From IMG/VR virus record IMGVR_UViG_3300045988_129198: DNA of 32,670 bases, one strand, 5' to 3'. The notes under the pieces are model-generated. The model saw only the letters and a program-made list of their open reading frames with translations. It made no database searches and was not told the DNA's origin. The translations under genes and the position numbers were made by a program. The stretch is from a virus (lineage: Duplodnaviria > Heunggongvirae > Uroviricota > Caudoviricetes). Shown here piece after piece: positions 2,082 to 30,057 of this stretch (the first letter of the stretch is position 1; each line of letters opens with the position of its first letter).

Positions 2082-2777
2082 TTAACCGTCATGCATCATG
2101 CTGGCACGGGCGCGCGCACGTTTATCCCGCTCGTATTTTTCGAGCGCATCCTGTAACTGGCGGTCGAGCTGAGTCCCCGGCGCAGTACCGCCCGTCAGAC
2201 TGATGTGATATTCGTTTTTACTCTGGTCCACATAAGAGCGGCCAGCCGGTGCCGTAACCGGCTGATAAGCCTGATAGCCTGCATAAGAGCTGGTCGCCGG
2301 AATATAACCACCGGTGCCATACGTGGCGGCATGAGTTCTGGCGGCGGTCTGGTCAAGCGTGCCTGACTCTTTGTTGATAACACCGAGTTTTTCCAGTACC
2401 CAGTCAATACCGCTGCGCAGTTTGTTGAACGCATTAAGCGGCAGCATCAACGCGTCAGCCAGTGCCTGCCCGAACATGACGCCCGTATCACGGCAACGGT
2501 TCAGGGTGTCCCGGGTGGCTTTGACCGGGGCAATCAGGTTTTTAAACCACTGCCACGCGGCCTGTAACTTTTCGCCCAGCCAGTCAAACACCGGCTTAAG
2601 TGGCGTGAACAGTTCCCCCACCGGCGCAAATGCCGCTTTCAGCCCTTCAACCACACCGCCAAAGAATGCGCTGACAGACTCCCAGTATTTACGGATAAGT
2701 AACGCCCCGGCGACAATGGCGGGCCCCAACCGTCGTGAAGATTGCTCCCATTGCGCCTGCTGCCGCGATGATGGCAT
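2082..2777 (-). CDS. T: Tail tape measure protein gpT, C-terminal segment (separated from the N-terminal segment by a frameshift)
   Basis: 231-aa ORF directly downstream of the 595-aa T segment and overlapping it in another frame; together about 800 aa, close to P2 gpT (815 aa). Confidence 0.75.
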   Translation of the reverse strand: MPSSRQQAQWEQSSRRLGPAIVAGALLIRKYWESVSAFFGGVVEGLKAAFAPVGELFTPLKPVFDWLGEKLQAAWQWFKNLIAPVKATRDTLNRCRDTGVMFGQALADALMLPLNAFNKLRSGIDWVLEKLGVINKESGTLDQTAARTHAATYGTGGYIPATSSYAGYQAYQPVTAPAGRSYVDQSKNEYHISLTGGTAPGTQLDRQLQDALEKYERDKRARARASMMHDG

Positions 2778-4476
2778 TGATGCCGGTGATAACCGGCCAG
2801 GCTACGAGGCCAATGGCACCGATGACACCAATCAGCGCCAGTGCACCACCGACAATGATGCCGATGGTTGACGCCAGTGATTTGTTTTTCTGTATCCAGC
2901 CGTCGAGTTTTAACACATACTTTGTGGCCGTCTGCGTGAGCTTACGCAGTGCGCCTTCCTGCTGGTCAAACAGGTCAGTCCCCACCGCCTCATAAGCGGA
3001 CTGAAACTCCTTAAAGTCACCGCCGAGGTTGTCCTGCATGATATTTACCAGCTCGGCGGTCTTCCCGTCTGAGGCTTTAAACGCAGCGGTCAGTTTGTCC
3101 AGCTTTCCAGTTGAGGCGGCAGTCATCAGCACGGCGGCGGCTGAGCTGACCTCCTCCCCGAAAATAGTTTTCATGTATTCAGCCTGCTGGGCAGTACCGA
3201 GCCGGTTTTTCTCAAAACTGGCCTGCATTTCTTTCAGAATGGTAAATACTGGTCGAGTATTCCCTTTACTGTCTGAGGTTTTCACGCCAAGCTCTTTCAG
3301 TGCATCCCATGCTTTTCCCGTCGGTGCCTGCAGGCGGCTTAACACGGCACGGCTTCCCGTCCCCGCCATTGAACCGGTAATTTTTGCATCATGCAGCGCC
3401 CCGACCATTGCGGCGGTTTCTTCAATGCTGACACCAGCATTTTTTGCCACAGGTGCGGCATAGGTCAGCGCATCGCTCATGCCATCAAAATCGGCGGCGG
3501 TTTTGTTCATCGTCATGGAGAGAACATCCCCGATATGAGCGACCTTATCGTTTGAAAGCTGAAAGGCGGATTTCATCCCCATCAGCAGGGCGGCGTTTTC
3601 TTCCATCGTGCGACGGTTCGCCAGCGCCATATTCAGCGTGACCGGCGTTGCCGCCTGAATGGCATCAACATCCCCACCGGCTTTCGCAATAATAATCTGC
3701 GCACCGGCTGCATCATCTGCCGAGGCTGCGGTATTGTCGCCGAGCTGGCGCGCCTGCTTGCGTAGTGCAGCCATTTCGGCGGAGTCTTTTGCCACACCGA
3801 GCACAGCCTGCAATTCTGAGTTTTTCTGCGCAAACTCATAACCGGGCATCAGCAACTTAACTCCGGCCATCGTTCCCGCAGCAGCAATCCCCACACCGGC
3901 AGCGCCCACTGAGGCCATATTTCCGGCCAGTTCCTTTCCGGCCTGATAACGCTGTTTTACTGCGTTAAGTTTTGCCTGTTGTGCACTGACACGCGCCAGC
4001 GCGTCACGCTGACGGTTAAGCTGTGCGGTGGTTTCACTGATACGGTTTTTCAGTCCCTGCTCATCATGTGCAAGATTGCGGGTATTAATTCCCACAGCGG
4101 CCAGTTCCCGCTGCTGGCGTTTAATGGAATCTGTCAGGCGGTTATATTTCGCCTGTAAGTCCTCCGCCGCACGCTTTGCGGATTCCAGCACTTTCGCCTG
4201 AGCACGGGTCGGACGTTCAGTGTTTTTAAACTGTGTGGCAAGGGCTTCGGCTTCCTGCCGTGCCTTTTCAAGTGCATGACCAGTCACGGCAAGCTGTGCG
4301 CTGGTCTTGCGAAATCCCTCAATACGGGATGCGTGACCGTTCAGCTCGCGCAGTGATTTTTGTGTTTCCCGGATATCCCCCGACAGCGACTTACTCGCTG
4401 TGCGGATGGATTTAAACGGGCGGGATGCCTGGTCAACAGCCCTGAGCAATACCTGTAATTTTACATTGTTACTCAT
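2689..4476 (-). CDS. T: Tail tape measure protein gpT, N-terminal segment (595 aa)
   Basis: Starts MSNNVKLQVLLRA as P2 gpT does; Ala/Gly-rich helical repeats typical of tape measure proteins; its start overlaps the E' stop. Confidence 0.85.
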   Translation of the reverse strand: MSNNVKLQVLLRAVDQASRPFKSIRTASKSLSGDIRETQKSLRELNGHASRIEGFRKTSAQLAVTGHALEKARQEAEALATQFKNTERPTRAQAKVLESAKRAAEDLQAKYNRLTDSIKRQQRELAAVGINTRNLAHDEQGLKNRISETTAQLNRQRDALARVSAQQAKLNAVKQRYQAGKELAGNMASVGAAGVGIAAAGTMAGVKLLMPGYEFAQKNSELQAVLGVAKDSAEMAALRKQARQLGDNTAASADDAAGAQIIIAKAGGDVDAIQAATPVTLNMALANRRTMEENAALLMGMKSAFQLSNDKVAHIGDVLSMTMNKTAADFDGMSDALTYAAPVAKNAGVSIEETAAMVGALHDAKITGSMAGTGSRAVLSRLQAPTGKAWDALKELGVKTSDSKGNTRPVFTILKEMQASFEKNRLGTAQQAEYMKTIFGEEVSSAAAVLMTAASTGKLDKLTAAFKASDGKTAELVNIMQDNLGGDFKEFQSAYEAVGTDLFDQQEGALRKLTQTATKYVLKLDGWIQKNKSLASTIGIIVGGALALIGVIGAIGLVAWPVITGINAIIAAAGAMGAIFTTVGARHCRRGVTYP

Positions 4477-4952: not shown

Positions 4953-5471
4953 TCACAGGCCGATATTGCGGCGGTGTTGCTCCAGCCGGTCGACGCCGTT
5001 CACCTTCTCAATCATGTTGATGGTGTCGATTTCGACCAGCGCCTTACCGTCCATCGTCAGCCGGAAATAGGTGCAGACCACGGAGATTTTCGACTCGGTG
5101 TCTTCTCCCTGTTTGCCCTCGCCGGTGTCGATTTCTTTCTGACGTCCACGCATGACCACCTCGACGGCCACCGTTTCGCCGGTATCGTCGCGCTGGTAAG
5201 AGCCTGCAAAACGAATCGGTACGGAATCCACACCGGTTGCGGCGTAAAGCTCCCAGATAACCGAATCCGGGAAGCCACCGAGCGACCACTCCATTGACAG
5301 CGCATCGTCATCAAGGCCGAGGTCTACCGGTGCGCTGCCGTTCATCCCCGCACCGCGATAGTTTTCGAGCTTACGGGTCAGTTTTGGTAGCGTGACGGAC
5401 TTCGCGACGCCCTGATAGCTGTAGCCGTTCAGAAAGACGTTCATTAACTTGAGTTTGCGCGGCATTGCCAT
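4953..5471 (-). CDS. FII: Tail tube protein gpFII
   Basis: 172 aa; P2 FII length and position. Confidence 0.9.
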   Translation of the reverse strand: MAMPRKLKLMNVFLNGYSYQGVAKSVTLPKLTRKLENYRGAGMNGSAPVDLGLDDDALSMEWSLGGFPDSVIWELYAATGVDSVPIRFAGSYQRDDTGETVAVEVVMRGRQKEIDTGEGKQGEDTESKISVVCTYFRLTMDGKALVEIDTINMIEKVNGVDRLEQHRRNIGL

Positions 5472-5483
5472 CGGTCAGGCTCC

Positions 5484-6674
5484 TTAATTGCTGTTAACCG
5501 AGGTGACCAGATTTGCCAGGTATTTATCGGTAATACGCTGGCGCAGGGTCAGGTTTTCAAGAGGAGGCACCGGTGTATAGTCGTAGTCGATATACAGTTT
5601 TCCGGCCTTGAGGGTTTCCGCATCGTTGGATTCTTCGCTGAACCAGCAGGTCGCATCCACGATATAGCCGTTTGTTTTCAGCTCACGGAATTTGGCATTG
5701 ATGCCGTCAACGATGTCGCGAATCAGCGTTGCGGTGATGGGCTTGTCCACCGCCCACATGTGCGCCTCAGCCATCGTGTCGGCCATCACCTGCGCGGTGC
5801 GGGTGTAGTTTTCAAAGAGGAACAGCGGGTCATCAGAGCAGGTACGGTTACCCCAGAATCGGAAACCGTCGCGGCGAATCAGCGTAGTGACGCCTGACTC
5901 GTTAAGCAGGTCAGCATCGGTGCCGGACTCCTGCAAATCCCAGAATACAGATGCGCTGATGCCGGTAACACCGTTTACCCCGACGTTGGACAGCGTTTTA
6001 TGCCAGCCCTGCTCCTGGTCGATTTTAGCGCGCAGACCCAGCGCACGGGCGGTGGCATACGCGGTGGCGGTGGTACTGGTGACCGTATCCCATGCGAGGA
6101 AATCCGGCCAGATGACCATCAGCTCACGCTGGCTGAAATTCTGGCGGTAGGCTTTCACCTCGGAAATGGTCTTACAGCCCCATGCGCTGATATATCCGAA
6201 AGCGCGCAGCTTCTGACAGACGGATGCCAGTGCAACAGCCACCTCTTTGGTATCCAGTCCCGGCACACCGAGAATACGCGGTTTAACACCGGTTACCGAC
6301 TCCGCCGCCAGCAGGGCTTTTAGTCCGGTGTACTGACCGTTTTCGTCGGTGGTGCCGATGATATTGGAAACGGTCTGCGCGAGTTTCGTTTCCTCGTCAT
6401 CACCGGTGCCGTCTTCCACGCGCACGACAACGGTGACCGGTTTTGACTGGTCAGCGATGGCCTGCAACGATGCCGCCAGCGTGCCTTTTTTACCGGCCTT
6501 TGCAATTGCGCTTTGCACATTGGTAATCAGCACCGGTTTATTGAGGGGGAAGGTTTCCGCATCCGCATCGCTGGCCGTGCAGACCATGCCGACAATGGCA
6601 GTGGATACGGTGGAAATGACGCGGGTGCCGTCGTTAATCTCCAGCACCTGCACGCCATGATGATAGTCACTCAT
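5484..6674 (-). CDS. FI: Contractile tail sheath protein gpFI
   Basis: 396 aa; P2 FI length and position. Confidence 0.9.
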   Translation of the reverse strand: MSDYHHGVQVLEINDGTRVISTVSTAIVGMVCTASDADAETFPLNKPVLITNVQSAIAKAGKKGTLAASLQAIADQSKPVTVVVRVEDGTGDDEETKLAQTVSNIIGTTDENGQYTGLKALLAAESVTGVKPRILGVPGLDTKEVAVALASVCQKLRAFGYISAWGCKTISEVKAYRQNFSQRELMVIWPDFLAWDTVTSTTATAYATARALGLRAKIDQEQGWHKTLSNVGVNGVTGISASVFWDLQESGTDADLLNESGVTTLIRRDGFRFWGNRTCSDDPLFLFENYTRTAQVMADTMAEAHMWAVDKPITATLIRDIVDGINAKFRELKTNGYIVDATCWFSEESNDAETLKAGKLYIDYDYTPVPPLENLTLRQRITDKYLANLVTSVNSN

Positions 6675-6769
6675 CCGTTTAACTCCGTGGTTAATGGGTG
6701 CAACTATTTTCTGTTGTGCAGAGCATAAGACGCTATTTGACCTGGCTGGTCAGTGGATGAAACAACAGA

Positions 6770-6800
6770 TAAAGAAAAGGCGGGCAATTCGCCCGCCTGT
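6770..6800 (-). terminator. Intrinsic terminator between the accessory island / V-G operon and the FI operon
   Basis: GC stem AGGCGGGC-AATT-GCCCGCCT (6777-6800), followed on the minus strand by a T-rich tract (plus 6770-6778 aaagaaaag). Confidence 0.6.
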
Positions 6801-6853
6801 CCTGATTTGTACTCACTCATTTTCCGCCTGACAATTTACATAGCCCAAATGCT

Positions 6854-6876
6854 ATCAAATCTGACAGTCTGCTTTG
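6854..6876 (+). repeat. Repeat site L (core CTGACAGTCT), left boundary of the accessory cassette
   Basis: ATCAAATCTGACAGTCTGCTTTG; a near-identical direct copy at 9164-9186 and an inverted copy at 9287-9308. Confidence 0.7.
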
Positions 6877-7004
6877 AGCGAAAAGTGGACATTAGAGTTA
6901 CAAAAGCAAGTTTAAATCATCCAAAATATTACAATGTCCTTATCTATCTGATATCGTTATGATAAAAAGCTCCTGAATATAATCGATAGTAGGTGGTTAT
7001 TTCC

Positions 7005-7382
7005 ATGAAATCAATTTTAGAGGTTTTTACTCAAGGAAATACTAAAGAAAAACTGGCTGTTATCGCCGATCTCACAACCATTGCGGGAATATCGATTGCA
7101 ACTATTATTGCTGGTTTGTTAACCCTAGTTGCAAAAACAGATAAACTAGATATTGGAAATCTGTTTGGAGTTGTCATAATATCTCTGCTCGGATTGGCTG
7201 GTGTTTGCTGTTTTGTGGCCTTATTTATTTGGGTTATAACCCAAATGTCTAAACCATGGGGAACACCTCGGGGGGTTCAGCCCTTAGTTAAGTGTGCTAT
7301 TTCCCTTATCTTTATCTGTATGTTTTTACTGGCTGTCTTTACATTTTATGAGTTTATTTCTTCGATGAGCATACGCTATTGA
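7005..7382 (+). CDS. Small integral membrane protein (3 predicted TM helices), function unknown
   Basis: ATG at 7005 preceded by AGGTGG; the track ORF begins at GTG 6993. Three hydrophobic segments of about 20-25 aa; AT-rich codon usage unlike the phage backbone. Confidence 0.6.
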   Translation: MKSILEVFTQGNTKEKLAVIADLTTIAGISIATIIAGLLTLVAKTDKLDIGNLFGVVIISLLGLAGVCCFVALFIWVITQMSKPWGTPRGVQPLVKCAISLIFICMFLLAVFTFYEFISSMSIRY

Positions 7383-7404
7383 ATATAAAATCAGCCCCCA
7401 TAAC

Positions 7405-7989
7405 TTAAAAGAGACCTTCTATATCGACTTCAATGCCCAAATAACGGACTGTGCTTTCCAGTTTCTTATGGCCCAACAGAAGTTGGATCACCCGGAGACT
7501 CTTGGTTTTCTTGTAGATTAAGTAAGGTTTTGTTCTTCTCATGGAATGTGTGCTGTACAGCGAATCTTCGAGACCAAGCTTTTCTACCCACCCATGAAAA
7601 ATTCGGTTGTATTGCCGGGTTGATATATGGTGGTTAGTTCCGACCCGAGAGCGGAACAGGAAGCCTTTACTATGCAAGTTGCCGAGCTTTATCAATGCAG
7701 TAACCGCTTCCCTTGTCCCTTTGGTTATCTCAAATTGGACAGGGCTGCCGGTTTTCTGTTGCAACACCGTTGCTCTGCTTGAGACAGAACTGCCATATGC
7801 AGCATCTGATACTTTGAGTTTGACCAAATCACAGCCCCGTAGCTTAGTGTCCAAAGCCATGTTGAACAGAGCTAGATCGCGTGTTTTACCTTCCAACTCA
7901 AGTCTAATCCGGATCCCCCAGATATGAGATATCTGAAGTGGCCTTTTTTGACCGATGGTACGGTCTTTATTCCACGGTGACGTTTTCAT
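7405..7989 (-). CDS. Small tyrosine recombinase (FimB/FimE-like size, phage-integrase catalytic fold)
   Basis: C-terminal HSMRRT...LRVIQLLLGHKKLESTVRYLG resembles the HxxR / LGH / Y boxes of tyrosine recombinases, and LRGCDLVKLKVSD resembles box I. First ATG at 7987-7989 with AGGAG 7 nt upstream; the track ORF extends to a TTG at 8091. Confidence 0.7.
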   Translation of the reverse strand: MKTSPWNKDRTIGQKRPLQISHIWGIRIRLELEGKTRDLALFNMALDTKLRGCDLVKLKVSDAAYGSSVSSRATVLQQKTGSPVQFEITKGTREAVTALIKLGNLHSKGFLFRSRVGTNHHISTRQYNRIFHGWVEKLGLEDSLYSTHSMRRTKPYLIYKKTKSLRVIQLLLGHKKLESTVRYLGIEVDIEGLF

Positions 7990-8095
7990 ATTCAAATCTC
8001 CTGCAATGTGGGAGATTTGAGTATGGTTGTCTCTCAAGAGCGAAAATAAGTCAACTATCACTAGTTGTTGCGCATGTACGTATTCTGTCAATTAA

Positions 8096-8938
8096 TTATT
8101 GACAATCATCAATTCTGGAATGATCAAAATCATCATATCGAATTATAGTCTGGTTGACTGTATCTATTGTTGGTGTCATTTCTGTTATAATATCCTGATA
8201 ACCTAAAGAGTTAAATACATTTACTAAGGCCTCACACCGAAGGGCCGTAGCAATTACAAAATTATAAATTGCCAGCCGTTTATTTTCTTGTTTAACTGCA
8301 AGAATGAATTCGATAGCAGTATTTTCATCACTTTGGATTGCATTATATAGAGATACTATATTTACCATATCATCAGAGAATGTATGTATTGAATCACAAA
8401 GGGGAACGTAATGGGCATGATAGTGTGTTTCCCAGCCAATTAATTCAAAAAGTTTTCTGGTTCCTGGATATTCAGGTGTATTTGGCCACAATCTATTAAA
8501 TAGATCAGTTAGTTCTTTTCCCATGCGAATCCTTTCATTTGCTGCTGGATTAGTCATTCCTTTGGATTTTAAACACTCCAGCCACCGTTTTCCATTACTA
8601 TGAACTAATTTCTTACTAGCCTTGAGTAATGCTTGTGCATTTTCGCCATCATCTATTGCTATATAAAATTGATTGGCAGCCTGTTCTATTATAACCCTAG
8701 CTAATACTTCCGATGCTGAAAAGGCTCCTATATTCAAAGAAGAGATAGCCTGATTACTAAGTTCATTCAGTACATTAAAGTACTGTAAGACCATCAATTT
8801 TTGTTCCACACCCTTTAGGTTGTCTATTTTATTTTTATGCTCCTCAAATTTTGCATGGATATATTTATTTATCGCGGCTATTTTTTTTACATCTTCGTCA
8901 AGATCAAACGGGCAACGTCCAAACAATTCTTTTTTCAT
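8096..8938 (-). CDS. Hypothetical 280-aa protein (cargo gene, no motif recognised)
   Basis: ATG at 8936-8938 with strong AGGAGA RBS; AT-rich; located upstream of and co-oriented with the recombinase gene. Confidence 0.75.
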   Translation of the reverse strand: MKKELFGRCPFDLDEDVKKIAAINKYIHAKFEEHKNKIDNLKGVEQKLMVLQYFNVLNELSNQAISSLNIGAFSASEVLARVIIEQAANQFYIAIDDGENAQALLKASKKLVHSNGKRWLECLKSKGMTNPAANERIRMGKELTDLFNRLWPNTPEYPGTRKLFELIGWETHYHAHYVPLCDSIHTFSDDMVNIVSLYNAIQSDENTAIEFILAVKQENKRLAIYNFVIATALRCEALVNVFNSLGYQDIITEMTPTIDTVNQTIIRYDDFDHSRIDDCQ

Positions 8939-9163
8939 ATATTTCTCCTGTTGTACAAGCTTCCATACGTTGGCAGATTATACACTGAAGATTACCTATA
9001 AATAGCTGTGCGGGATAGCAGATCAGTGCAAGAAGTACAACCAAGTGAACTGTGCGTATTCAGATACCTGGCCTAACGTTCGCGATAGCCGTCCCCTGCA
9101 CGAAGCCATATATTAGATGTATTAGCTCAGACCTTATCTGACAGGTTGAGTAGGTAGAATCTA

Positions 9164-9186
9164 ATCAAAGCTGACAGTCTGGTTTG
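9164..9186 (+). repeat. Repeat site M (direct copy of L)
   Basis: ATCAAAGCTGACAGTCTGGTTTG, 21/23 identical to site L. Confidence 0.7.
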
Positions 9187-9286
9187 GACTGTGAGTTCAA
9201 CTGATGGATGCAACACACAGCGATCTACGGACATTACTAGCATAGCTGTGTATTAATCATCGGGAAGCAGGTCAGTCCGCTCCTAG

Positions 9287-9308
9287 CACAGAGCAGACTG
9301 TCAGATTA
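9287..9308 (-). repeat. Repeat site R (inverted copy of L/M), lying in the loop and 5' arm of a 10-bp-stem hairpin
   Basis: Reverse complement AATCTGACAGTCTGCTCTGTGC; 16 nt identical to L; flanked by stem 9284-9293 / 9316-9325 (TAGCACAGAG/CTCTGTGCTA). Confidence 0.7.
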
Positions 9309-9359
9309 GGCTTTACTCTGTGCTATAGATACGTTAGCTCACTCCAGAGATCATACAAC

Positions 9360-9887
9360 TTATTGCGGCATTTCCGGCCATTCAGGATTTGCAGGATCCA
9401 CACGGCTGACCAGAACACTGTAGCGTTCCCATGCTTCCAGTCGGCTACGCTCCTCATCTGTTGCCATATTCAGTCTGACAGAGCGTTCCAGTGGCTGAAT
9501 GATAGTTTCAGCTTCGGAAAGCAAAGCTGACTTCTGTAATTCCGCCAGTTGCAGCTGTTCGTCTGCCGTATAAATCCGCTTAATCACGGCACCATCCTTA
9601 AACATCCATTTACCTGAGTCATCAGCACGTCGGTTGGCGGTAATATCAGGAACCTCGACAACGCTAAAACCTTCAGGGTTGAGCGTTGAAGCATCTCTGG
9701 TGATGCCGACAATTATATTATTCTCATCGTAAACAATCTTTATCGTGTCTTCCTGAAAATTACTTACTTCCTCATACCAGTTTTTTCCCTCTTCGGACCA
9801 TAACCAGATAACATCAAAATTTTTTGTCAGTTGATATTGGGCAACAGTTTTTGGATTACCCGCAGTAATATTTTTTAAATGCTGCAT
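9360..9887 (-). CDS. G: Tail fiber assembly chaperone gpG
   Basis: 175 aa; P2 gpG size; immediately downstream of H. Confidence 0.85.
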
Positions 9888-9890
9888 AAA

Positions 9891-12626
9891 TTACACCTGT
9901 GCGACGTTATACCATGTGCCATTGATGTATTTTTGTATTGGTCTGAATACTGCGGGGTCATCACCATCGACTTCACCGACAATACCAAGCCCGGTAATTA
10001 CGTGCCCTGCTTTCTCATACATCACCCCTTTCTGCATGGTCTGGACAACACGTGTGCCAAGTCTGACATCTCTCACATAGCGGGAATCAAAGTTACCGTA
10101 ATCCGAGGGATTAACACGCCCCGTAATATTTATGGTTTTATTACTTTGAACGCTTCCGGAGACAAAGCGCATAACATGGACGCTATTAGCATAAACATCC
10201 AGATTACCATCACCATTTTGTTTAAAGCCCGTGTCATTATCACCCAAAACAATCGAATTACCGCCAAGAGCACTGGATGTTCCTATACCCAGAGCACCAT
10301 TCAATTGACCACCAGATAACGGCAGTGCACCGACATCTCCCGCTGTAGGTTTTCGCGTTGTGGTATAAAACTCAGACCAGTCAGCCTCGAATCCGTAACC
10401 GTCACGAGCAGAACGATAAAAAATACCACCGTTCTTATAATTAACGCGAAACTGGGCGGCGGGACAACTTCCTTCCCCGATATTAAAATGAAGAATTAAC
10501 GTTGATGCCCCACCAATAGTTGCGTTATAGGCTCCGCTACTCCAGTTCCATCCAACGGCTTTATCATTCGCAACGGTGTCTCCTGTTTTTCCTGAAGCAA
10601 ATGCACCAATACTTTTCGGCGTCAGGTTAATATCTGATGTTCCATCAAACGAAACGTTATTAATTTTACGGGCTGTTTTCAGCTTTGTTGCTGTCGCCGC
10701 ATTGCCGGACAGTTCACCAGAAAGGCCAGCACTGAATGTCTGTTTCGCGCCCCATGTCTGGGCTTCGTCAATGATTGGTACTCGTCTTGTTGTGATCGTG
10801 CGGCCTCCCGGATTTCCTGAAATGCGCACCATAAAAAAGCGGTAGTTGGCTTTACTTACAGTGCTGCGCCATACATGCATTGAGCGCCCCGAACCAGAAT
10901 CATCACTCGGACCGACTGAGATGTTTATCAGGTTGCCATCAATGACGCCCCAGTCCATACCGTCGGGAATGTTGGTCATATTATCAAGCCGAACGGTTAT
11001 CAGACTGCCCGGCACAAAATCGTAGGTCTGCCAGTCCAGACTGGATAGTTTTGCCACTGCGCCACCGATGCCCAGATTCAGAGGCAACGAAAAGGAGTTA
11101 TATACTTCTCGCCATTCGGTCCATTTGCTCCCGGCATAGACGCGCTCAAAAGTGCGCCCCTGTGTGGTTTCTGATTTCCCTGTGGTTGTGTAACGCTGCC
11201 AGACAGATACACCATCAAAACGCCTGATTACTTCCAGTATTCCAAGCAGTGTCGCTCCAGCGGTATCCTGCATTGGACCGTTTGACGCCTTCCCTGTAAC
11301 GCTGTAAATGCCTGGCGAAGTCAGATCATTCAAATCACCTTCGTAATAACGACATTCTGACTGATGGCCTACTCTTGACCACGGCTCCCACTGTGGGTTC
11401 TGTGCATTCCATATAGCAGAAAGGCAGCGAACATATACGTTCCCACGGCGGGTCGTATAGCGTTGCGTGCGTGAGTACCCACCACCCTCAAGAACTTCAA
11501 GGAATCCCTGACCATAACTTCCTTCTTCCGGATAGTTGCGGTCAAATGAAGCGATAGTGCCACTACTGTTTCGCCATAAACCAAGATGCTCTGCGCCTCC
11601 TAGCGTGTTCAGGTCAATAGTTGTGCTCAGGGGGCGTGTTGCAGACTGAATCTGACGCCAGTAGATCCACGGACCGTCTGAGCCATTCCAGGTGCCAGAA
11701 AGATTACGCATATAAACATTGCCAGTTCTGGTGGTATAACGCTGCATTCCGGAAAAATTACCGCCATTGAATACCTCAAGAACACCGACTGCACCGTCTT
11801 CAGGGAAATTTTTCTCCAGTGTTGCGTTGGAGGATGTGGATTTATACCAGACACCCACATAAGCCTTAACTGGACCAAATGTATTGAGATCAGCATCAAC
11901 CGGCATTTCGCCGTTGTTTTTCATAAACGTCAGGCTGGTAACACCAATATTGTCCAGAAAAGCTGATTTATCCTGGATATCTGCACCGTTCTGATTTTTC
12001 GCCAGACGTGAATTTGCGTTGTCATTTGCTGCCTTGACCGCTTTTGGCGTTGCCGCCAGCTCTTCACTGGTGCTGTTTGTTGCACTGCTTAACTGAGTAA
12101 AACCTTTTTCTGTCAGCGTGGCGTCAGGATGGCGGCGGGACTGCTCATGCTCTGCGATTTTGTCATCGACGTAATCCTGCGTCGCCATCACTGTGCTGGC
12201 ATCAATACTCAGCTCAACGGACGCCACGTTGCTGAGAATAATAACCATGCGGCAGGTCTGCGCACGTCCGGAGCCTTCAGCCAGTTCTGGCTTATAGCTT
12301 TCAGCCATGTTGGATACCGCAATCAGTGTTCCGGCATCGTCATACAGACCAAGCTCACGCATCCAGAAGCCGCCCACTTCGGGCGGTACAACCAGTTCAG
12401 CCACAATATAGTTTTTATTCTTATTATCCACACTGACTTTATTCAGAGCGTGACGCCAGACCTCATGCACCAGTTTCGTCTGACCGGCATCCGGCACCGG
12501 TAATTTGCCATTACCGTCACCCACGGCCATTGCAGACAGGTTTACTTTTTTCCCGCCGGGGACAGTGGCGGCTGCCAGCTTTGCGGCTCCGGCAGTAGTG
12601 ATAACGGTTTTAAATTTCGTGCTCAT
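9891..12626 (-). CDS. H: Tail fiber protein gpH (911 aa, three internal tandem repeats, extended C-terminal region)
   Basis: N-terminus MSTKFKTVITTAGAAKLAAA is the conserved P2 H baseplate-attachment region; three repeats of about 90 aa each contain QRYTT(R/T)xGNVY. Confidence 0.9.
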   Translation of the reverse strand: MSTKFKTVITTAGAAKLAAATVPGGKKVNLSAMAVGDGNGKLPVPDAGQTKLVHEVWRHALNKVSVDNKNKNYIVAELVVPPEVGGFWMRELGLYDDAGTLIAVSNMAESYKPELAEGSGRAQTCRMVIILSNVASVELSIDASTVMATQDYVDDKIAEHEQSRRHPDATLTEKGFTQLSSATNSTSEELAATPKAVKAANDNANSRLAKNQNGADIQDKSAFLDNIGVTSLTFMKNNGEMPVDADLNTFGPVKAYVGVWYKSTSSNATLEKNFPEDGAVGVLEVFNGGNFSGMQRYTTRTGNVYMRNLSGTWNGSDGPWIYWRQIQSATRPLSTTIDLNTLGGAEHLGLWRNSSGTIASFDRNYPEEGSYGQGFLEVLEGGGYSRTQRYTTRRGNVYVRCLSAIWNAQNPQWEPWSRVGHQSECRYYEGDLNDLTSPGIYSVTGKASNGPMQDTAGATLLGILEVIRRFDGVSVWQRYTTTGKSETTQGRTFERVYAGSKWTEWREVYNSFSLPLNLGIGGAVAKLSSLDWQTYDFVPGSLITVRLDNMTNIPDGMDWGVIDGNLINISVGPSDDSGSGRSMHVWRSTVSKANYRFFMVRISGNPGGRTITTRRVPIIDEAQTWGAKQTFSAGLSGELSGNAATATKLKTARKINNVSFDGTSDINLTPKSIGAFASGKTGDTVANDKAVGWNWSSGAYNATIGGASTLILHFNIGEGSCPAAQFRVNYKNGGIFYRSARDGYGFEADWSEFYTTTRKPTAGDVGALPLSGGQLNGALGIGTSSALGGNSIVLGDNDTGFKQNGDGNLDVYANSVHVMRFVSGSVQSNKTINITGRVNPSDYGNFDSRYVRDVRLGTRVVQTMQKGVMYEKAGHVITGLGIVGEVDGDDPAVFRPIQKYINGTWYNVAQV

Positions 12627-12636
12627 TGTTTCTCAC

Positions 12637-13167
12637 TTATCCGGGATAAACAGTAATAACATCACCATCACAGACCACACCGCCTGTATACAGGTAGCCG
12701 GGAATGTCCTGGGTAATGTTCAGACCAATAAGGTGACGGCTTGCGGGTTTGGCATCAGCAATCAGTCGCTCCATTTCCAGATACATTTCCTCTGTGATGC
12801 CGCTTTCCAGTACACCAATATCGAGCCGGAAGGTGCCGGGCGGGTCATTGTTTTCCCACCACTCCGTCACATTGATGAGATAGCCGAGCGGCTCCACCAC
12901 ACGCCGGATTGCGCCGACAGTGCCTTTATGACAGTGGATGAAATAGGCATCGCGGATAACGGCGCGTTTTGTCGCTTCCGGCCACTTTTCATCCCACCTG
13001 TCGACCGAAAACGCCCACGCCAGCCACGGCAGCAGATTTGCCGGACAGGTGTCCGGGTTCCACAGCTCACGAATACTGACCGGCGTTTTTTCAATTTCCG
13101 CACAGGCTTTTGCAGCGGCGACTTCAAGCGGTGATGAGCCGGTCGGCAGCAGTCGCGAATCACTCAT
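12637..13167 (-). CDS. I: Baseplate protein gpI
   Basis: 176 aa; P2 gpI size and position. Confidence 0.9.
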   Translation of the reverse strand: MSDSRLLPTGSSPLEVAAAKACAEIEKTPVSIRELWNPDTCPANLLPWLAWAFSVDRWDEKWPEATKRAVIRDAYFIHCHKGTVGAIRRVVEPLGYLINVTEWWENNDPPGTFRLDIGVLESGITEEMYLEMERLIADAKPASRHLIGLNITQDIPGYLYTGGVVCDGDVITVYPG

Positions 13168-14068
13168 CCGAGCCTCCGGTCACGACGCGGTATTCGGTAC
13201 AGAAAGACGCCTGCGTGCTGTTAAGCACGATATCGGCCAGCGGTGCAGCCAGTTCGACACGCTGCACGCCTTCCACATGCAAAGCGGCATAAATGGCAGA
13301 CAGACGGATGTCGCGCCCCAGCCGGTGCTGTGCCGTGATGTACGCTTCCAGTTTTTTCACTGCAGCAGCGCGAATTGGTTCGCTTTCGGGACCAGGGTAA
13401 AGGTAAAGCGTGGCGTTTATCTGGTATTCAACGATGGCGGCAGACTGCACGGTCACGCGGTCGGCCACCGGTCTGACGTCCTCGCCATTAAGGGCGTTAC
13501 GCACCACCGCCAGCAGGTCTTCGGAAGCGACACCGTTATTTTCACGTGACAGCACAGAGATGGTGACACAGGCCGGAGACGGACTGGTGACAGAGATATC
13601 CGCGACACGCCCGTCGGCACTGCGGCCATGATACTGATAGGCACCCACCGACCCGGCGACGCTTAAACCTTCAAACGCCTGCTGAATACGCAGACGATAA
13701 TCAGTGTCAGATTCCATTACTGCCGGTGTCGGCGGGATGGTCGAATCATCTGCTGGGGTGATAATCAGGCGCGTGGTATTGTAATTGGCACCAATCACAT
13801 CAAGGTCATTACCGGCGGCACTGGCCAGCATCACCGCCCGTGCGGCCTCATTCACACGCTGACGCCAGATAAGCTCACGATAAGCATTTTCCTCCAGCAG
13901 TTTGACGAGAGGTTCGGATTCCAGCGTCAGGGTATGGGCGACCGCCTCCTGCTGGTCTTCCGGGTAAAGGGAAATCAGTGTCGCCTTGCGTTCGGCAAGA
14001 ATGGTTTCAAAGTCCAGCTCCTCGACCACATCCGGTGCGGGTAGCTGGTTCAGGTCGATAATCGGCAT
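13160..14068 (-). CDS. J: Baseplate protein gpJ
   Basis: 302 aa; P2 gpJ size and position. Confidence 0.9.
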   Translation of the reverse strand: MPIIDLNQLPAPDVVEELDFETILAERKATLISLYPEDQQEAVAHTLTLESEPLVKLLEENAYRELIWRQRVNEAARAVMLASAAGNDLDVIGANYNTTRLIITPADDSTIPPTPAVMESDTDYRLRIQQAFEGLSVAGSVGAYQYHGRSADGRVADISVTSPSPACVTISVLSRENNGVASEDLLAVVRNALNGEDVRPVADRVTVQSAAIVEYQINATLYLYPGPESEPIRAAAVKKLEAYITAQHRLGRDIRLSAIYAALHVEGVQRVELAAPLADIVLNSTQASFCTEYRVVTGGSDE

Positions 14069-15142: not shown

Positions 15143-15185
15143 GATTACTTAACTGGCAAAAAAACATCCTCACTAATTGGAGCCA

Positions 15186-16277
15186 ATGGATACACGCATG
15201 TCAGACATTCTAATTACTTATGATGAACGGAAAGATAAATTTGAGTCCTATGCCCTTACTCTTAAATCGTTATTAACCACGTTAATTCGCAATGAAAAAA
15301 TTTCAATTCACTCACTTGAATCAAGAGTTAAAACAAAAAAAAGCCTTGAAGGTAAGATTAATAAAAAGGGAAAATACAAGTCTATAGATGATATTACTGA
15401 TATCGTTGGTATCAGGATCATCACACATTATGCTGATGATGTTGATAAGATAGCTGCTATAGTTGAAAAGGAGTTCACCATTGACCAAGAGAACTCTATT
15501 GATAAAAGAACCTCAATTGCGCCTGATAAATTTGGTTACCTATCACTTCATTATATAGTAACTTTAAACTCAACCAGAACAAACTTAAAAGAATATGAAG
15601 TATATAAAAACATCAAAGCCGAATTACAAATACGATCAATCCTTCAGCATGCCTGGGCGGAGATTGAACACGACATTGGTTATAAGTCGGCCACAGGACT
15701 GCCTAATGAAATAAGAAGATACTTTTCACGCTTAGCTGGTCTTTTAGAAATGGCCGATGATGAATTTATTAAAATCAGAAAAAAGATTTCTGAACGGCAG
15801 AAAGAGGTTGCAAAAGAACTAGAGCAAGGAACTAGTGATTCAGTTTTAGATATTTTCACTTTGGATGAGTTCTTAAACACAAGTCGAATTATGAGTGAAC
15901 TTTCAGAAGAGATAAAAGAAAAAACAGGAATCACAGTACATGGCCGATACAAGGATAAAGATTTGGGATACCTACTAAATGGTTTAAACCTAGCCAACAT
16001 AACTACAATAGAACAACTCAATCAAAAACTCTCACAAATGAAAAAGCAGATCGTAGATAGAATATTCTGCTTCGGAGAACCATTTATTAATTATTGCAGA
16101 GAAACCCCCATGCCAAAAGAAGCTCTTTTGAGTTATTTATGTCAAATTATCGTTGCGTTTCAAAACTCACCTTCGTTAGAATCTGAATTTAATAACAAAG
16201 CAGGTTTAAATCTGAAAAACAGCAATATCTCCGATTTTTTCTCGAATATAAGAGAAAACATAAGCACACAACCTTAG
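15186..16277 (+). CDS. RelA/SpoT-domain nucleotidyltransferase (toxSAS), candidate fused toxin-antitoxin of CapRel type
   Basis: Synthetase-domain signatures SRVKTKKSLEGKI...DIVGIRIITHYADD and ELQIRSILQHAWAEIEHDIGYK. About 363 aa with a C-terminal domain of about 150 aa with no recognisable motif. Start is ambiguous (TTG 15177, ATG 15186 or ATG 15198). AT-rich, on the opposite strand to the flanking late genes, at the P2 orf30 position. Confidence 0.8.
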   Translation: MDTRMSDILITYDERKDKFESYALTLKSLLTTLIRNEKISIHSLESRVKTKKSLEGKINKKGKYKSIDDITDIVGIRIITHYADDVDKIAAIVEKEFTIDQENSIDKRTSIAPDKFGYLSLHYIVTLNSTRTNLKEYEVYKNIKAELQIRSILQHAWAEIEHDIGYKSATGLPNEIRRYFSRLAGLLEMADDEFIKIRKKISERQKEVAKELEQGTSDSVLDIFTLDEFLNTSRIMSELSEEIKEKTGITVHGRYKDKDLGYLLNGLNLANITTIEQLNQKLSQMKKQIVDRIFCFGEPFINYCRETPMPKEALLSYLCQIIVAFQNSPSLESEFNNKAGLNLKNSNISDFFSNIRENISTQP

Positions 16278-25853: not shown

Positions 25854-26477
25854 TCATACTAACTTGTCTATTGAAATTACAAGCTTTTCGATGAAGTTCT
25901 TAACTACTACCATATCATCACCAGTTATGGGCCAAGGCTCACGAGGTGTAATTGGTTGCATGTCACCTTCATGTGCTATCTTATTACGTCGATCAACAAT
26001 CGCATTCAGATTTAATCTCAGTGACTTAGATTCTAAATCGGCATTACTATTCGTAGCACCTTGATCTATTGCAACCTCTCTCCACAAGGAAATATTTGAA
26101 ATCAGCCTAATTCCATCAGCAATAGATTCACTGGTTTGATACGTTTGAATCCCAAGTTGTCGCCTAACTTCTAAGTCATAAATTTGGTCACGAGTCCAAG
26201 CGTTGTTAAAAATATTATTCATAACACTATGGGGCATTGTAAACTTATCGTATTTCTGCGTACTAGCCCTCCTTCCCTGAAAAATCTCAAGCATCCGCTG
26301 CGCGACAAGTTCATGAATATATAAATCTAAAGCAGAAACTCTAGCAACCCACTCAGCTCTCAGAATTTCTCGAGAATCAAATACACTCGAAAAATTAGTA
26401 GAAGTATAAGCATATGTCACAGATAACAAATCACATCTAATCCAAGCACGGTCAAATATCGATTTTGGCGTTGACAT
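25854..26477 (-). CDS. Hypothetical 207-aa protein with an R-x4-H motif (candidate HEPN-like RNase effector)
   Basis: C-proximal IVDRRNKIAHEGD contains R-N-x3-H; AT-rich; starts 4 nt after the upstream ParA-like gene's stop. Confidence 0.6.
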   Translation of the reverse strand: MSTPKSIFDRAWIRCDLLSVTYAYTSTNFSSVFDSREILRAEWVARVSALDLYIHELVAQRMLEIFQGRRASTQKYDKFTMPHSVMNNIFNNAWTRDQIYDLEVRRQLGIQTYQTSESIADGIRLISNISLWREVAIDQGATNSNADLESKSLRLNLNAIVDRRNKIAHEGDMQPITPREPWPITGDDMVVVKNFIEKLVISIDKLV

Positions 26478-26480
26478 ACT

Positions 26481-27524
26481 TCAATCTCTTGTCAGGGCGA
26501 TAACCCTTTCTGCACAAGTGTCAAATGCAGCAGAAAATACAGTCATATTTTTTTCCGTCTGATCCCAAACAGCGCCTTTCTGACCAGTCTGTTGGGCTGT
26601 CAGTGTGTAGACTGGAACTTGAAATTCCTGAGACATAGCAATCAGACTATTGAAATCAGAGACTTCCATTATTGGGTCAGAAGGAGGCATCCCTGCTTTT
26701 TGCTCAAACTCGACTACATCCAACATATCAAACTCAACAAGTTTCGGGATTAGCAAAGAAATTAAGTTATCTCGAAGTTCATCAATCCATTTTTGGAAGG
26801 CCGCAGATGCCTGACCATTGCGTGGTCTATACTTTTGGACGATAGAACCTATAAATTTCACGTTAGACTCAGGGAATGGATAGTTAGCATTCTGGAGCAA
26901 CTCCATTCGTGAAGCCATGTTTGCCCATTGTTTCCATCTTGGTAAAGTACGAGCGAGAGAAGAAAGGGCCATCGACGAGAAATAATCAGGATGAAGAGGT
27001 ACGATAAAATAATCTGATGTAGTTAAAATGTTTTGGTTCAATGGCCCCAGGCTCGGGCTCATATCAACAATCACATAATCTGCATTTACTTTTTCAGCAG
27101 TTAGGTCAAACAAATACCTGATAGAACCAGGAAGGTTTTTAAGTGGTAATAATGACCCCGTTAATTCTTGAGCTACACCTAATGTAGTTTCATACTCAGA
27201 AAGCCCAATATGGCCGGCAAGAAGATGCAAGTTTGCATTACCCTCGATATCAAACACTTCTGCAGGTTCAATCGCACTTGGTTTAGACTCAAAAGCAGGA
27301 GAAAGGGCGTCACGAATATTATTGGCTACTGGTTGATTATAAATCTGTTCTAAATCCGCAATGCCTCTAAATCCAAGAATCATTCCGGTAAGATTACATT
27401 GTGGATCACAATCAGCTAGCAAAACCTTATGACCTTTCTCAGCCAACTTCCAACCTAAGTTAAACGCAGTAGTAGTTTTACTTACTCCACCCTTATGATT
27501 AAACAAACAGATTACCTTCGCCAT
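26481..27524 (-). CDS. ParA/MinD-family P-loop ATPase
   Basis: Deviant Walker A KGGVSKTT near the N-terminus, DCDPQ A' motif and hydrophobic Walker B (YVIVDMSP); 347 aa; AT-rich. Confidence 0.8.
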   Translation of the reverse strand: MAKVICLFNHKGGVSKTTTAFNLGWKLAEKGHKVLLADCDPQCNLTGMILGFRGIADLEQIYNQPVANNIRDALSPAFESKPSAIEPAEVFDIEGNANLHLLAGHIGLSEYETTLGVAQELTGSLLPLKNLPGSIRYLFDLTAEKVNADYVIVDMSPSLGPLNQNILTTSDYFIVPLHPDYFSSMALSSLARTLPRWKQWANMASRMELLQNANYPFPESNVKFIGSIVQKYRPRNGQASAAFQKWIDELRDNLISLLIPKLVEFDMLDVVEFEQKAGMPPSDPIMEVSDFNSLIAMSQEFQVPVYTLTAQQTGQKGAVWDQTEKNMTVFSAAFDTCAERVIALTRD

Positions 27525-29792: not shown

Positions 29793-30057
29793 ATGAGCCA
29801 AAAGCCTCTGAACAACGCCTGCTGAGTTGCTCAACCTGCGCGTTTAAATCAGCAAAAGACTTTGCGCTTCCGGTCAGAATATCGTGATGCATCAGGCCGG
29901 AAACGAGCTGGCTTAATTTCGGGTAATAACCAACCACCGCCAGCCATTCCTGACCGGCGTTTTTACCGCTTTCCGCTCTCTTTTTCTCGTGGAGAATAAA
30001 CTGAAAGCTGTCACTGGTAACGACATAACGTTCGCCAATTTCAATACGAAAACTCAT
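29782..30057 (-). CDS. Hypothetical protein (P2 orf83 position)
   Basis: 91-aa ORF placed by synteny between the DksA-like gene and A. Confidence 0.6.
   Translation of the reverse strand: MSFRIEIGERYVVTSDSFQFILHEKKRAESGKNAGQEWLAVVGYYPKLSQLVSGLMHHDILTGSAKSFADLNAQVEQLSRRCSEAFGSYGR

Follow-up and report, generated by a model that had tools for sequence, protein, structure and literature searches.

Two site classes bordering a probable cassette slot in the FI–G hotspot of P2-like phages, with a small tyrosine recombinase as candidate enzyme

The gap between the tail sheath gene FI and the tail-fibre assembly gene G of a P2-like prophage (IMG/VR record IMGVR_UViG_3300045988_129198; its whole 32,670 nucleotides (nt) are called the window here, and the prophage runs along the reverse strand) is filled, at 6854–9308, by three genes encoding a 125-amino-acid (aa) predicted membrane protein, a 194-aa tyrosine recombinase and a 280-aa DUF5677 protein. 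This gap is a hotspot, the place of the non-essential fun(Z) in phage P2, and belongs to the known variable loci of P2-like phages (PMC9122126). We found that two of the repeated sequences bounding this stretch, sites L and R, are 24-bp sites of two different classes, and we consider it probable that together they bound one cassette slot as its two fixed borders. On this explanation the cargo of the slot would be swapped by a small recombinase acting between sites of the same class, and the three genes seen here would be the product of one such insertion and its later decay.

An initial annotation, made from the letters of the window alone, had described three copies of one site, with L (6854–6876, ATCAAATCTGACAGTCTGCTTTG) and M (9164–9186, ATCAAAGCTGACAGTCTGGTTTG) as direct repeats identical at 21 of 23 positions, and R as the 16-nt core of L in inverted orientation. 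The positions of all three sites and the stated identities were borne out; on the minus strand R reads AATCTGACAGTCTGCT at 9292–9307, identical to 6858–6873. A repeat search of the whole window extended L and R to a 33-nt inverted repeat (6858–6890 and 9275–9307, 82% complementary). With up to one mismatch the core CTGACAGTCT occurs seven times in the window versus 1.35 expected, a count reached by none of 100 shuffles. A fourth exact 10-mer, at 28120, sits inside gene A, and its flanks are unrelated; it is a match by chance. Two degenerate sites, at 8029–8052 and 9209–9232, had been overlooked. At 2978 the arms match at 12/14 positions around an unrelated spacer, and this too was taken as chance.

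The functional unit is not this core but a 24-bp site, and the CTGACA motif at its edge is phage-backbone flank outside the arm. When we searched 1.2 Mb of related loci for GTCCGCT-N10-AGCGGAC (at least 12 of 14 arm positions), 155 matches had a gap of 10, versus 1–6 at any other gap from 4 to 19, and the unit is therefore 9 + 6 + 9 nt with palindromic arms (consensus GTCCGCTyy-N6-rrAGCGGAC). L and R look like inverted repeats because these arms are palindromic. Inverted arms around a spacer of 6–8 bp are typical of tyrosine-recombinase sites, and the 9-6-9 anatomy points to a site of this type. There are two classes of spacer, TCGCTC (T) and GTGCCA (G), read on the recombinase strand, each 96–100% invariant, and the arm sequence is conserved too. 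The analysis covered two samples: 80 loci with recombinase homologues, most of them more than 90% identical, from chromosomes and plasmids of dozens of genera (one per species), and about 65 complete G-to-FI intervals of P2-like phages from IMG/VR. Scoring arms and spacer together, we observed 277 sites on the recombinase strand versus 8 on the other at the recombinase loci, and 128 on the G-gene strand versus 0 on the other at the P2 loci; the 405 sites on the recombinase or G-gene strand compare with one in shuffled loci.

Within the window, site L (6867–6890, minus strand) is of the T class and is the border on the FI side. It reads GTCTGCTTT-GAGCGA-AAAGTGGAC on the plus strand and GTCCACTTT-TCGCTC-AAAGCAGAC on the recombinase strand; its outer arm belongs to the phage and its inner arm to the cassette of the 125-aa gene. 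Site R (9275–9298, minus strand), the border on the G side, is of the G class (GTCCGCTCC-TAGCAC-AGAGCAGAC on the plus strand, GTCTGCTCT-GTGCTA-GGAGCGGAC on the recombinase strand), with an outer arm from the phage and an inner arm that arrived with the DUF5677–recombinase unit. The P2-backbone flank of L (6828–6866), which holds two CTGACA motifs 33 nt apart, is kept as AAAGCAGAC running into TGTCAGATTTGATAGC in P2-like phages with unrelated cargo. Two CTGACA motifs at exactly this distance precede both L (6828–6866) and M (9138–9176), and the R flank has one only. Beyond the L flank, a terminator scan found an intrinsic terminator of the P2 backbone (6778–6798, minus strand) upstream of the FI promoter, which marks the edge of the hotspot on the FI side.

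The same two borders enclose unrelated cargo in other P2-like phages. Four sequenced phages with unrelated cargo (L-413C, P2_2H1, P2_4C9 and 12474II) are homologous to the window up to 6881–6899 and again from 9269–9287, and these breaks sit inside L and R. Among the IMG/VR intervals, in which the gap measures 1.06–4.9 kb, all but a few start with CTGACA followed directly by GTCCGCTCT-GTGCCA, 50–62 nt past the G stop codon, and most finish with TCGCTC-AAAGCAGAC followed directly by TGTCAG, about 216 nt before FI. The cargo-side arms vary with the cargo, and longer cargos hold internal junctions made of a T site, an 18-nt linker and a G site (T-18-G). Inverted repeats flank the G–FI insert in the four named phages, in about 60 P2-like IMG/VR loci with unrelated cargo between the same two borders, and in P2 itself, whose fun(Z) is bounded by one site of the G class and one of the T class. 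A P2-like locus without a slot (L097; comparison loci are cited by such numbers) runs from the G stop codon directly into the terminator hairpin and then the FI promoter. Seven loci (L090–L096) are identical to the window, with R of the G class and L of the T class on the recombinase strand; in each a G site lies upstream and a T site downstream, both oriented with the recombinase gene, as in the arrays described below.

The candidate enzyme is the product of the gene at 7405–7989 (minus strand), which consists of a catalytic domain only (PF00589, E 1.4e-17, 64.4 bits versus a cut-off of 27.1). Its candidate active-site residues, R51 (LRGCD), K79 (QQKTG), H148 and R151 (HSMRR), H174 (LLGH) and Y183 (VRYLG), are assigned by motif position, not structure, and are invariant in an alignment of homologues. 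A profile of 28 homologues matched the XerD catalytic domain (residues 131–280, E 2e-5), and the catalytic domains of XerD and XerA are the nearest solved relatives; a PDB search with the single recombinase sequence found no match. Scores against models of named groups were 43 bits for XerC (cut-off 335), 26 bits for XerD (cut-off 330), 18.2 and 18.3 bits for the integron-integrase models TIGR02249 (cut-off 265) and NF011946 (cut-off 435), and 20.1 bits for the tyrosine-type DNA invertase model NF007371 (cut-off 222). The family is large: clustering at 50% identity gives 380 groups (E <= 1e-30), and at 90% identity there are more than 7,900 (E <= 1e-10). Dozens of genera have homologues above 90% identity, and in the sources that we examined the family is annotated with generic names only.

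Sequence conservation around the recombinase gene ends at the sites themselves. Upstream it stops between GTCCGCTnn and TCGCTC-ATAAGGGACAACC, and downstream between GCAGCCCT-GTGCCA and nnAGCGGAC, in about 55 of 60 loci; the gene lies between a T and a G site and therefore occupies a junction. The recombinase gene alone is 89–91% identical in 878 plasmid records, mostly from Klebsiella, in which homology ends at 8044, one base past the spacer, and in one such plasmid module cassettes and T and G sites flank the gene. This widespread plasmid form is annotated as WP_001752951. The recombinase's own T-class site in the window (8029–8052, minus strand; GTCTCTCAA-GAGCGA-AAATAAGTC on the plus strand) keeps its recombinase-side arm and spacer, and its cassette-side arm is degenerate. 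The second degenerate site is a T-type half-site (9209–9232, minus strand; TGCAACACA-CAGCGA-TCTACGGAC on the plus strand), and a 56-nt segment at 9219–9274 is homologous to DNA that abuts the recombinase's T site in four other loci (L012, L015, L020 and L085); half-site and segment both recur beside the recombinase gene in other genera. At the start of the recombinase gene lies a hairpin (7986–8026, minus strand; RNA fold −18.1 kcal/mol, z −3.97), whose 15-bp stem pairs the Shine–Dalgarno sequence and ATG of the gene with an upstream complement. Across genera the stem has been kept, and at least one change in it is compensatory (L006); we infer that it would block translation from read-through transcripts, like the structures that give some transposase genes protection from outside transcription.

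In many Gammaproteobacteria, on chromosomes as well as plasmids, hundreds of T and G sites form arrays beside genes for close homologues of the recombinase. The sites are mostly paired, with a start-to-start distance of 42 nt in 30 of 46 pairs, which corresponds to the 18-nt linker, and the recombinase gene stands mid-array, inside a T–G junction. Taking a cassette as the stretch from a G site to the next T site, we counted 127 cassettes (median 1.55 kb), which hold 231 open reading frames (ORFs) in 170 clusters, on both strands (134 on the recombinase strand, 97 on the other). Part of the cargo consists of transporters, AraC/LysR regulators, acetyltransferases and hydrolases; another part is made up of defence genes, including CBASS 4TM effectors, GmrSD, LmuB, PtuA, AriA, SduA and a Lit-type peptidase. 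In one Leclercia array (L037) the recombinase gene is present twice (8001–8567 and 12752–13374), the copies lying about 4.7 kb from each other. More distant relatives of the recombinase (58–70% identity, from marine and other sources, L059–L084) are accompanied by similar arms with other recurring spacers (ATACAC/ATACTG, CGTATC, TGGCTA, ACTTCC and CGAGAC; for example L075 7099–13298 and L081 1048–4650), and these recurring spacers hint at co-evolution of enzyme and site.

Five comparisons place the limits of exchanged DNA at these sites. A 3.19-kb block of two cassettes is shared, at 98.9% identity, between P2 slots (L128/L131) and a Leclercia tamurae array next to a recombinase gene (L010); the homology reaches from the G spacer to the T spacer and ends there, and the outer arms are specific to each context. 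The first cassette of another P2 slot (L149) matches, over 1.7 kb that end at the spacers, the cassette lying directly after the recombinase gene in L021. Window positions 7423–9298 are 96.7% identical to a Buttiauxella array (L006), and the match ends at the outer edge of R (9298). The slot of E. coli NQ3 (L181) differs from that of E. coli KSC207 (L180) by an additional DUF6650 cassette within the L spacer, and this insertion yields a new G site, an 18-nt linker and a new T arm, which is what integration of a circle by T×T recombination predicts. Finally, the window is identical to L180 between FI and 7423, L included, and once more from 9276 onwards, with the DUF5677–recombinase unit joined at R. 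Together these breakpoints indicate site-limited exchange.

We consider the following explanation probable as a whole. Recombination between two T sites or two G sites, presumably double-stranded and carried out by the small recombinase family, would excise a circle made of a cassette and a junction, and this circle could re-insert at any site of the same class, the phage borders included; insertion at one class followed by deletion at the other would swap the cargo of a slot. L and R have different spacers, and therefore each would recombine with same-class sites elsewhere and not with the other. As T and G would thus be orthogonal addresses, a cassette could be stable between its own borders yet exchangeable. 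The wider proposal is that this is a previously unrecognised cassette system, parallel to integrons, widespread in Gammaproteobacteria and docking at the P2 tail-gene hotspot, with a catalytic-domain recombinase of about 200 aa, two orthogonal 24-bp sites and attC-like foldable T-18-G junctions; for that joint claim we place equal weight on its being right and its being wrong.

The insert in the window can be given a history on the same terms. The 125-aa gene is the sole cargo of the slot in E. coli KSC207, and we took it as the resident cassette of an ancestor of that type. At 7407–7423 the window retains the left half and loop of this gene's terminator hairpin (AAAAGAGACC-TTCTATA-). L180 continues as AAAAGAGACC-TTCTATA-AGGTCTCTTTT; the window instead runs into the recombinase gene after 7423, the point at which homology to plasmid and array recombinase genes starts, and the DNA of 7407–7423 encodes an aberrant recombinase end (IEGLF and a stop codon). 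The right junction of the insert, at R, is site-specific and the left one, at 7423/7424, illegitimate. The likely order of events, reconstructed from these junctions, would begin with a G×G excision of a DUF5677–recombinase circle from an array like that of L006. The circle would then have entered by G×G recombination at the G border (R) of a phage whose slot held the 125-aa gene alone. A later illegitimate deletion of about 360 bp would have cut away the second G site together with the right-hand part of the resident cassette and 11 codons from the end of the recombinase gene. Such a deletion would lock the insert in place and probably cripple the enzyme. The G half-site normally found downstream of the recombinase gene is missing from the window, and this copy of the recombinase may be inactive. 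The most fitting reading of the element is an insertion that has been locked in and is probably disabled, and not an active switch. The idea in the initial annotation that a cassette had entered by site-specific recombination survives in altered form: the sites look like those of tyrosine recombinases and the recombinase segment probably came in site-specifically, but the pairings of L with M and of M with R were wrong.

Site M turned out to be of another kind. M and its flank (9138–9195, minus strand) are apparently a fossil L-type border of the T class, which has kept its outer arm with about 40 nt of flank of the P2 type. The M and L regions share a 49-nt direct repeat of 71% identity that includes 35 nt of flank, and a gapped alignment of both sites with their flanks matches over about 100 nt, with M lacking 11 bp that span the inner arm and most of the spacer. 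The arm score of M is about 8/14, which is chance level, and no second arm lies at the right distance. M moves with the leader of the DUF5677 gene in Buttiauxella and in lambdoid prophages, which are non-P2 contexts, and all this indicates that it is a decayed T border inside that leader and not a partner site.

This bears directly on the initial annotation, which took L and M as excision partners of a three-gene circle and the M/R pair as a fim-like invertible promoter switch of the DUF5677–recombinase operon. L and M are indeed direct repeats, an 11-nt core of M recurs inverted in R at a distance of 112 nt, with both sites upstream of the operon, and the recombinase has the size of FimB and FimE. 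We nevertheless regard both proposals as very unlikely. M has neither the spacer nor the second arm that L has, owing to the 11-bp deletion, and P2-like phages with unrelated cargo have L and R but no M, with R a G-class border whatever the cargo. We looked for the predicted products in 5,426 complete E. coli genomes, of which 38 carry the element; assemblies give the majority state, and rare events could escape. No L×M deletion product was found there (no match covering 80% of the query) or among the approximately 65 IMG/VR P2-like loci, and no M×R inverted isoform was found in the E. coli genomes, in which the best matches were the 38 carriers, in normal orientation and 85% identical. One IS3 insertion apart, each of the 35 full-length carriers aligns collinearly with the window as one piece, and the invertase score quoted above is far below its cut-off. 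An even less credible alternative, to our minds, is that cargo is swapped only by homologous recombination in the tail genes and that the inverted repeats are incidental, for instance transcription signals. FI and G are 90–95% identical among P2-like phages, which would be ample for such recombination, but the breaks fall in the 24-bp sites and not at variable points of the flanks, the same cassettes stand beside the recombinase gene in genomes without P2 flanks, and neither repeat has the T-run typical of a terminator.

Two further alternatives accept the sites and change what acts on them. Several findings weigh against the explanation that we favour, and some of them would suit these rivals. 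The link between enzyme and sites is drawn from association and from the breakpoint pattern, and the recombinase loci were chosen by homology to the recombinase, so that the sample is not independent of the hypothesis. Most bordered P2 slots lack the small recombinase gene, and action there would therefore need a supply in trans from another replicon. An AlphaFold2 model built from 28 close homologues reached a pLDDT of 48, too poor for a fold search; the window copy lacks the nearly invariant C-terminal DALEISESIEV, its last 11 residues, and has IEGLF instead; and spacer variants (GTGCTA, GTGCAA, GTACCA and TTGCTC) occur that may be incompatible with the consensus classes. The missing recombinase genes would be expected if the borders were genuine but worked by XerC/XerD, the P2 integrase or some other enzyme, with the small recombinase a frequent cargo or an enzyme of its own junction only, and the arm-site consensus of P2 Int, tgTGGaCa (PMC3448106), loosely resembles AGYGGACA at the site edge. 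We hold this to be unlikely, in view of the clustering of the sites around the small recombinase gene in non-P2 plasmids and chromosomes, their orientation with that gene (277 versus 8), the position of the gene between T and G half-sites in about 55 of 60 loci and the other recurring spacers of distant recombinase lineages. Against the Xer version in particular, the E. coli dif sequence is, to our knowledge, unrelated to the T and G sites. Unlikely too is the notion that T and G are the halves of a single attC-like element, the T-18-G junction, which would recombine as folded single-stranded DNA. The reverse complement of GTGCCA matches TCGCTC at 4 of 6 positions, and the T–G hairpin, with two mismatched spacer positions, is the minimum-energy fold of single-stranded DNA in three of four junctions (z −3 to −4). 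However, the arm sequence and not structure alone is conserved, every site is a full palindromic 9-6-9 unit, the phage borders lie kilobases apart, which makes local pairing impossible, and crossovers fall at T and G spacers alike, versus the single crossover point of attC.

The remaining genes of the slot and their surroundings were also annotated. The gene for the 125-aa membrane protein (7005–7382, plus strand; 129 aa if it starts at the GTG at 6993) has no match in Pfam, NCBIfam or PADLOC; an exact-protein look-up returned P2 contexts only, and informative relatives came from a DNA search. The DUF5677 gene (8096–8938, minus strand; PF18928, E 5e-10; no PADLOC match) lies upstream of the recombinase gene on the same strand. 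PF00589 and DUF5677 were the sole matches of the three cargo proteins, and no defence-system match was found for them with PADLOC, Pfam and NCBIfam. A promoter scan of 6650–9400 gave fewer matches than in shuffles and was uninformative. The DUF5677–recombinase pair also occurs in the Buttiauxella array and in lambdoid prophages (L001 3965–5750 and L004 3415–5164), where it stands beside an ATPase and HNH pair; the M fossil is present there and the G and T border sites are absent. The recombinase gene of L001 is frameshifted, and that of L004 is unannotated, in a record deposited as an 8.4-kb 'plasmid' of lambdoid replication genes. Other public derivatives of the element have an extra deletion (L095) or insertion sequence (IS) elements, such as an ISEc12 (IS21 family) between DUF5677 and M (L002 6626–8928) and an IS3-family element in another strain.

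Elsewhere in the window, the P2-like backbone comprises the genes for the tape measure (2689–4476), tail tube (4953–5471), tail sheath FI (5484–6674), tail-fibre assembly protein G (9360–9887), tail fibre H (9891–12626) and replication protein A (27723–29834), with FI and G on either side of the gap. The other P2 hotspot, on the side of gene A towards the portal gene (25854–27524, minus strand), holds a ParA-like ATPase (AAA_31) and a RiboL-PSP HEPN protein; we found no T or G sites there, and cargo at that hotspot would therefore be exchanged by another route. A gene for a 366-aa RelA/SpoT-domain protein (15177–16277, plus strand; PF04607, E 1.9e-21; PADLOC candidate PDC-S33) lies on the opposite strand among tail and baseplate genes and has no flanking T or G sites, and this locus is a second moron position, its gene possibly being a defence gene of the alarmone-synthetase type. 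Differing ORF sets have been described upstream of the 'xerC' of mcr-10 (PMC9431528), and we suspected from these variable sets that it was the same recombinase; pMCR10_090065 encodes a different, 331-aa protein. The colistin-resistance gene mcr-10.1 follows this 331-aa tyrosine recombinase (L172 26058–29039), and the locus could have a cassette-like organisation of its own.

A large share of enterobacterial genomes carry P2-like prophages, whose hotspots are a major store of anti-phage systems. How cargo is swapped at these hotspots has mostly been left open or put down to flanking homology. With a pair of 24-bp sites and a candidate enzyme in hand, the question becomes experimentally tractable, and cassettes can be delimited computationally by the rule that each begins at a G site and ends at the T site that follows. 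The sites also link phage hotspots to arrays on plasmids and chromosomes, including a module found in hundreds of Klebsiella and E. coli plasmids. If our explanation holds, it would supply the missing mechanism by which defence and metabolic genes are traded between phage hotspots and bacterial arrays.

Part of this picture has a precedent. In 2004, inverted repeats were noted flanking inserts at the Z/fun position of P2-like coliphages (Nilsson, Karlsson and Haggard-Ljungquist, Mol Biol Evol, doi 10.1093/molbev/msg223, via PMC8987985). The locus is the same, and by position so are the repeats, L and R; that report is known to us through papers citing it, and what these relay does not include a recombinase, two spacer classes, T-18-G junctions or arrays. 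Our literature search, which covered few subscription journals, turned up no account of this recombinase family, of two spacer classes, of the junction structure or of the arrays. The border repeats at the P2 locus are thus prior art, and the candidate enzyme, the two-spacer design, the junctions and the Gammaproteobacterial arrays are apparently new.

Among known systems, integrons are close in outline. In both a tyrosine recombinase stands beside an array of diverse exchangeable cassettes that are presumably mobile as circles, the junctions, about 66 nt long, are imperfect palindromes able to fold, and the cargo is rich in defence genes. The enzyme, however, is about 200 aa long (194–200 aa) without an N-terminal core-binding domain, whereas the IntI model length is about 320, and its scores of 18.2 and 18.3 bits place it outside the IntI-type integrases. 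The recombinase gene lies inside a junction in mid-array, and the junctions differ from attC in that arms and spacers are conserved in sequence, each junction has two sites and crossovers occur at both classes. Nor are the cassettes a co-oriented, promoterless series read from a Pc promoter: with a median of 1.55 kb, they carry genes running both ways (134 versus 97 ORFs by strand), often with their own regulators, many of the AraC/LysR type. The pdif modules of Acinetobacter plasmids use host XerC/XerD and 11-6-11 dif-like sites, one per junction. They resemble our arrays as gene modules between arm–6 nt–arm sites of alternating 'polarity' that are common to several replicons; the arrays differ in their unrelated site sequence, two sites per junction and linked, dedicated small recombinase, which falls far below the cut-offs of the XerC and XerD models. 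FimB/FimE switches share a tyrosine recombinase of about 200 aa and short inverted repeats near a promoter region, but the E. coli assemblies held one orientation only and no inverted isoform, M is decayed, and the enzyme is not of the FimB/FimE type by the invertase model. The design itself has a counterpart in the laboratory, where recombinase-mediated cassette exchange employs Cre or Flp with heterospecific spacer variants of lox or FRT. There, as in the T and G sites, the same arms with incompatible spacers keep a segment stable and let it be exchanged by two same-class crossovers; the arrangement described here differs in being apparently natural and conserved, with a candidate enzyme predicted from sequence, and a very small recombinase with two naturally orthogonal sites could in turn serve cassette exchange in the laboratory.

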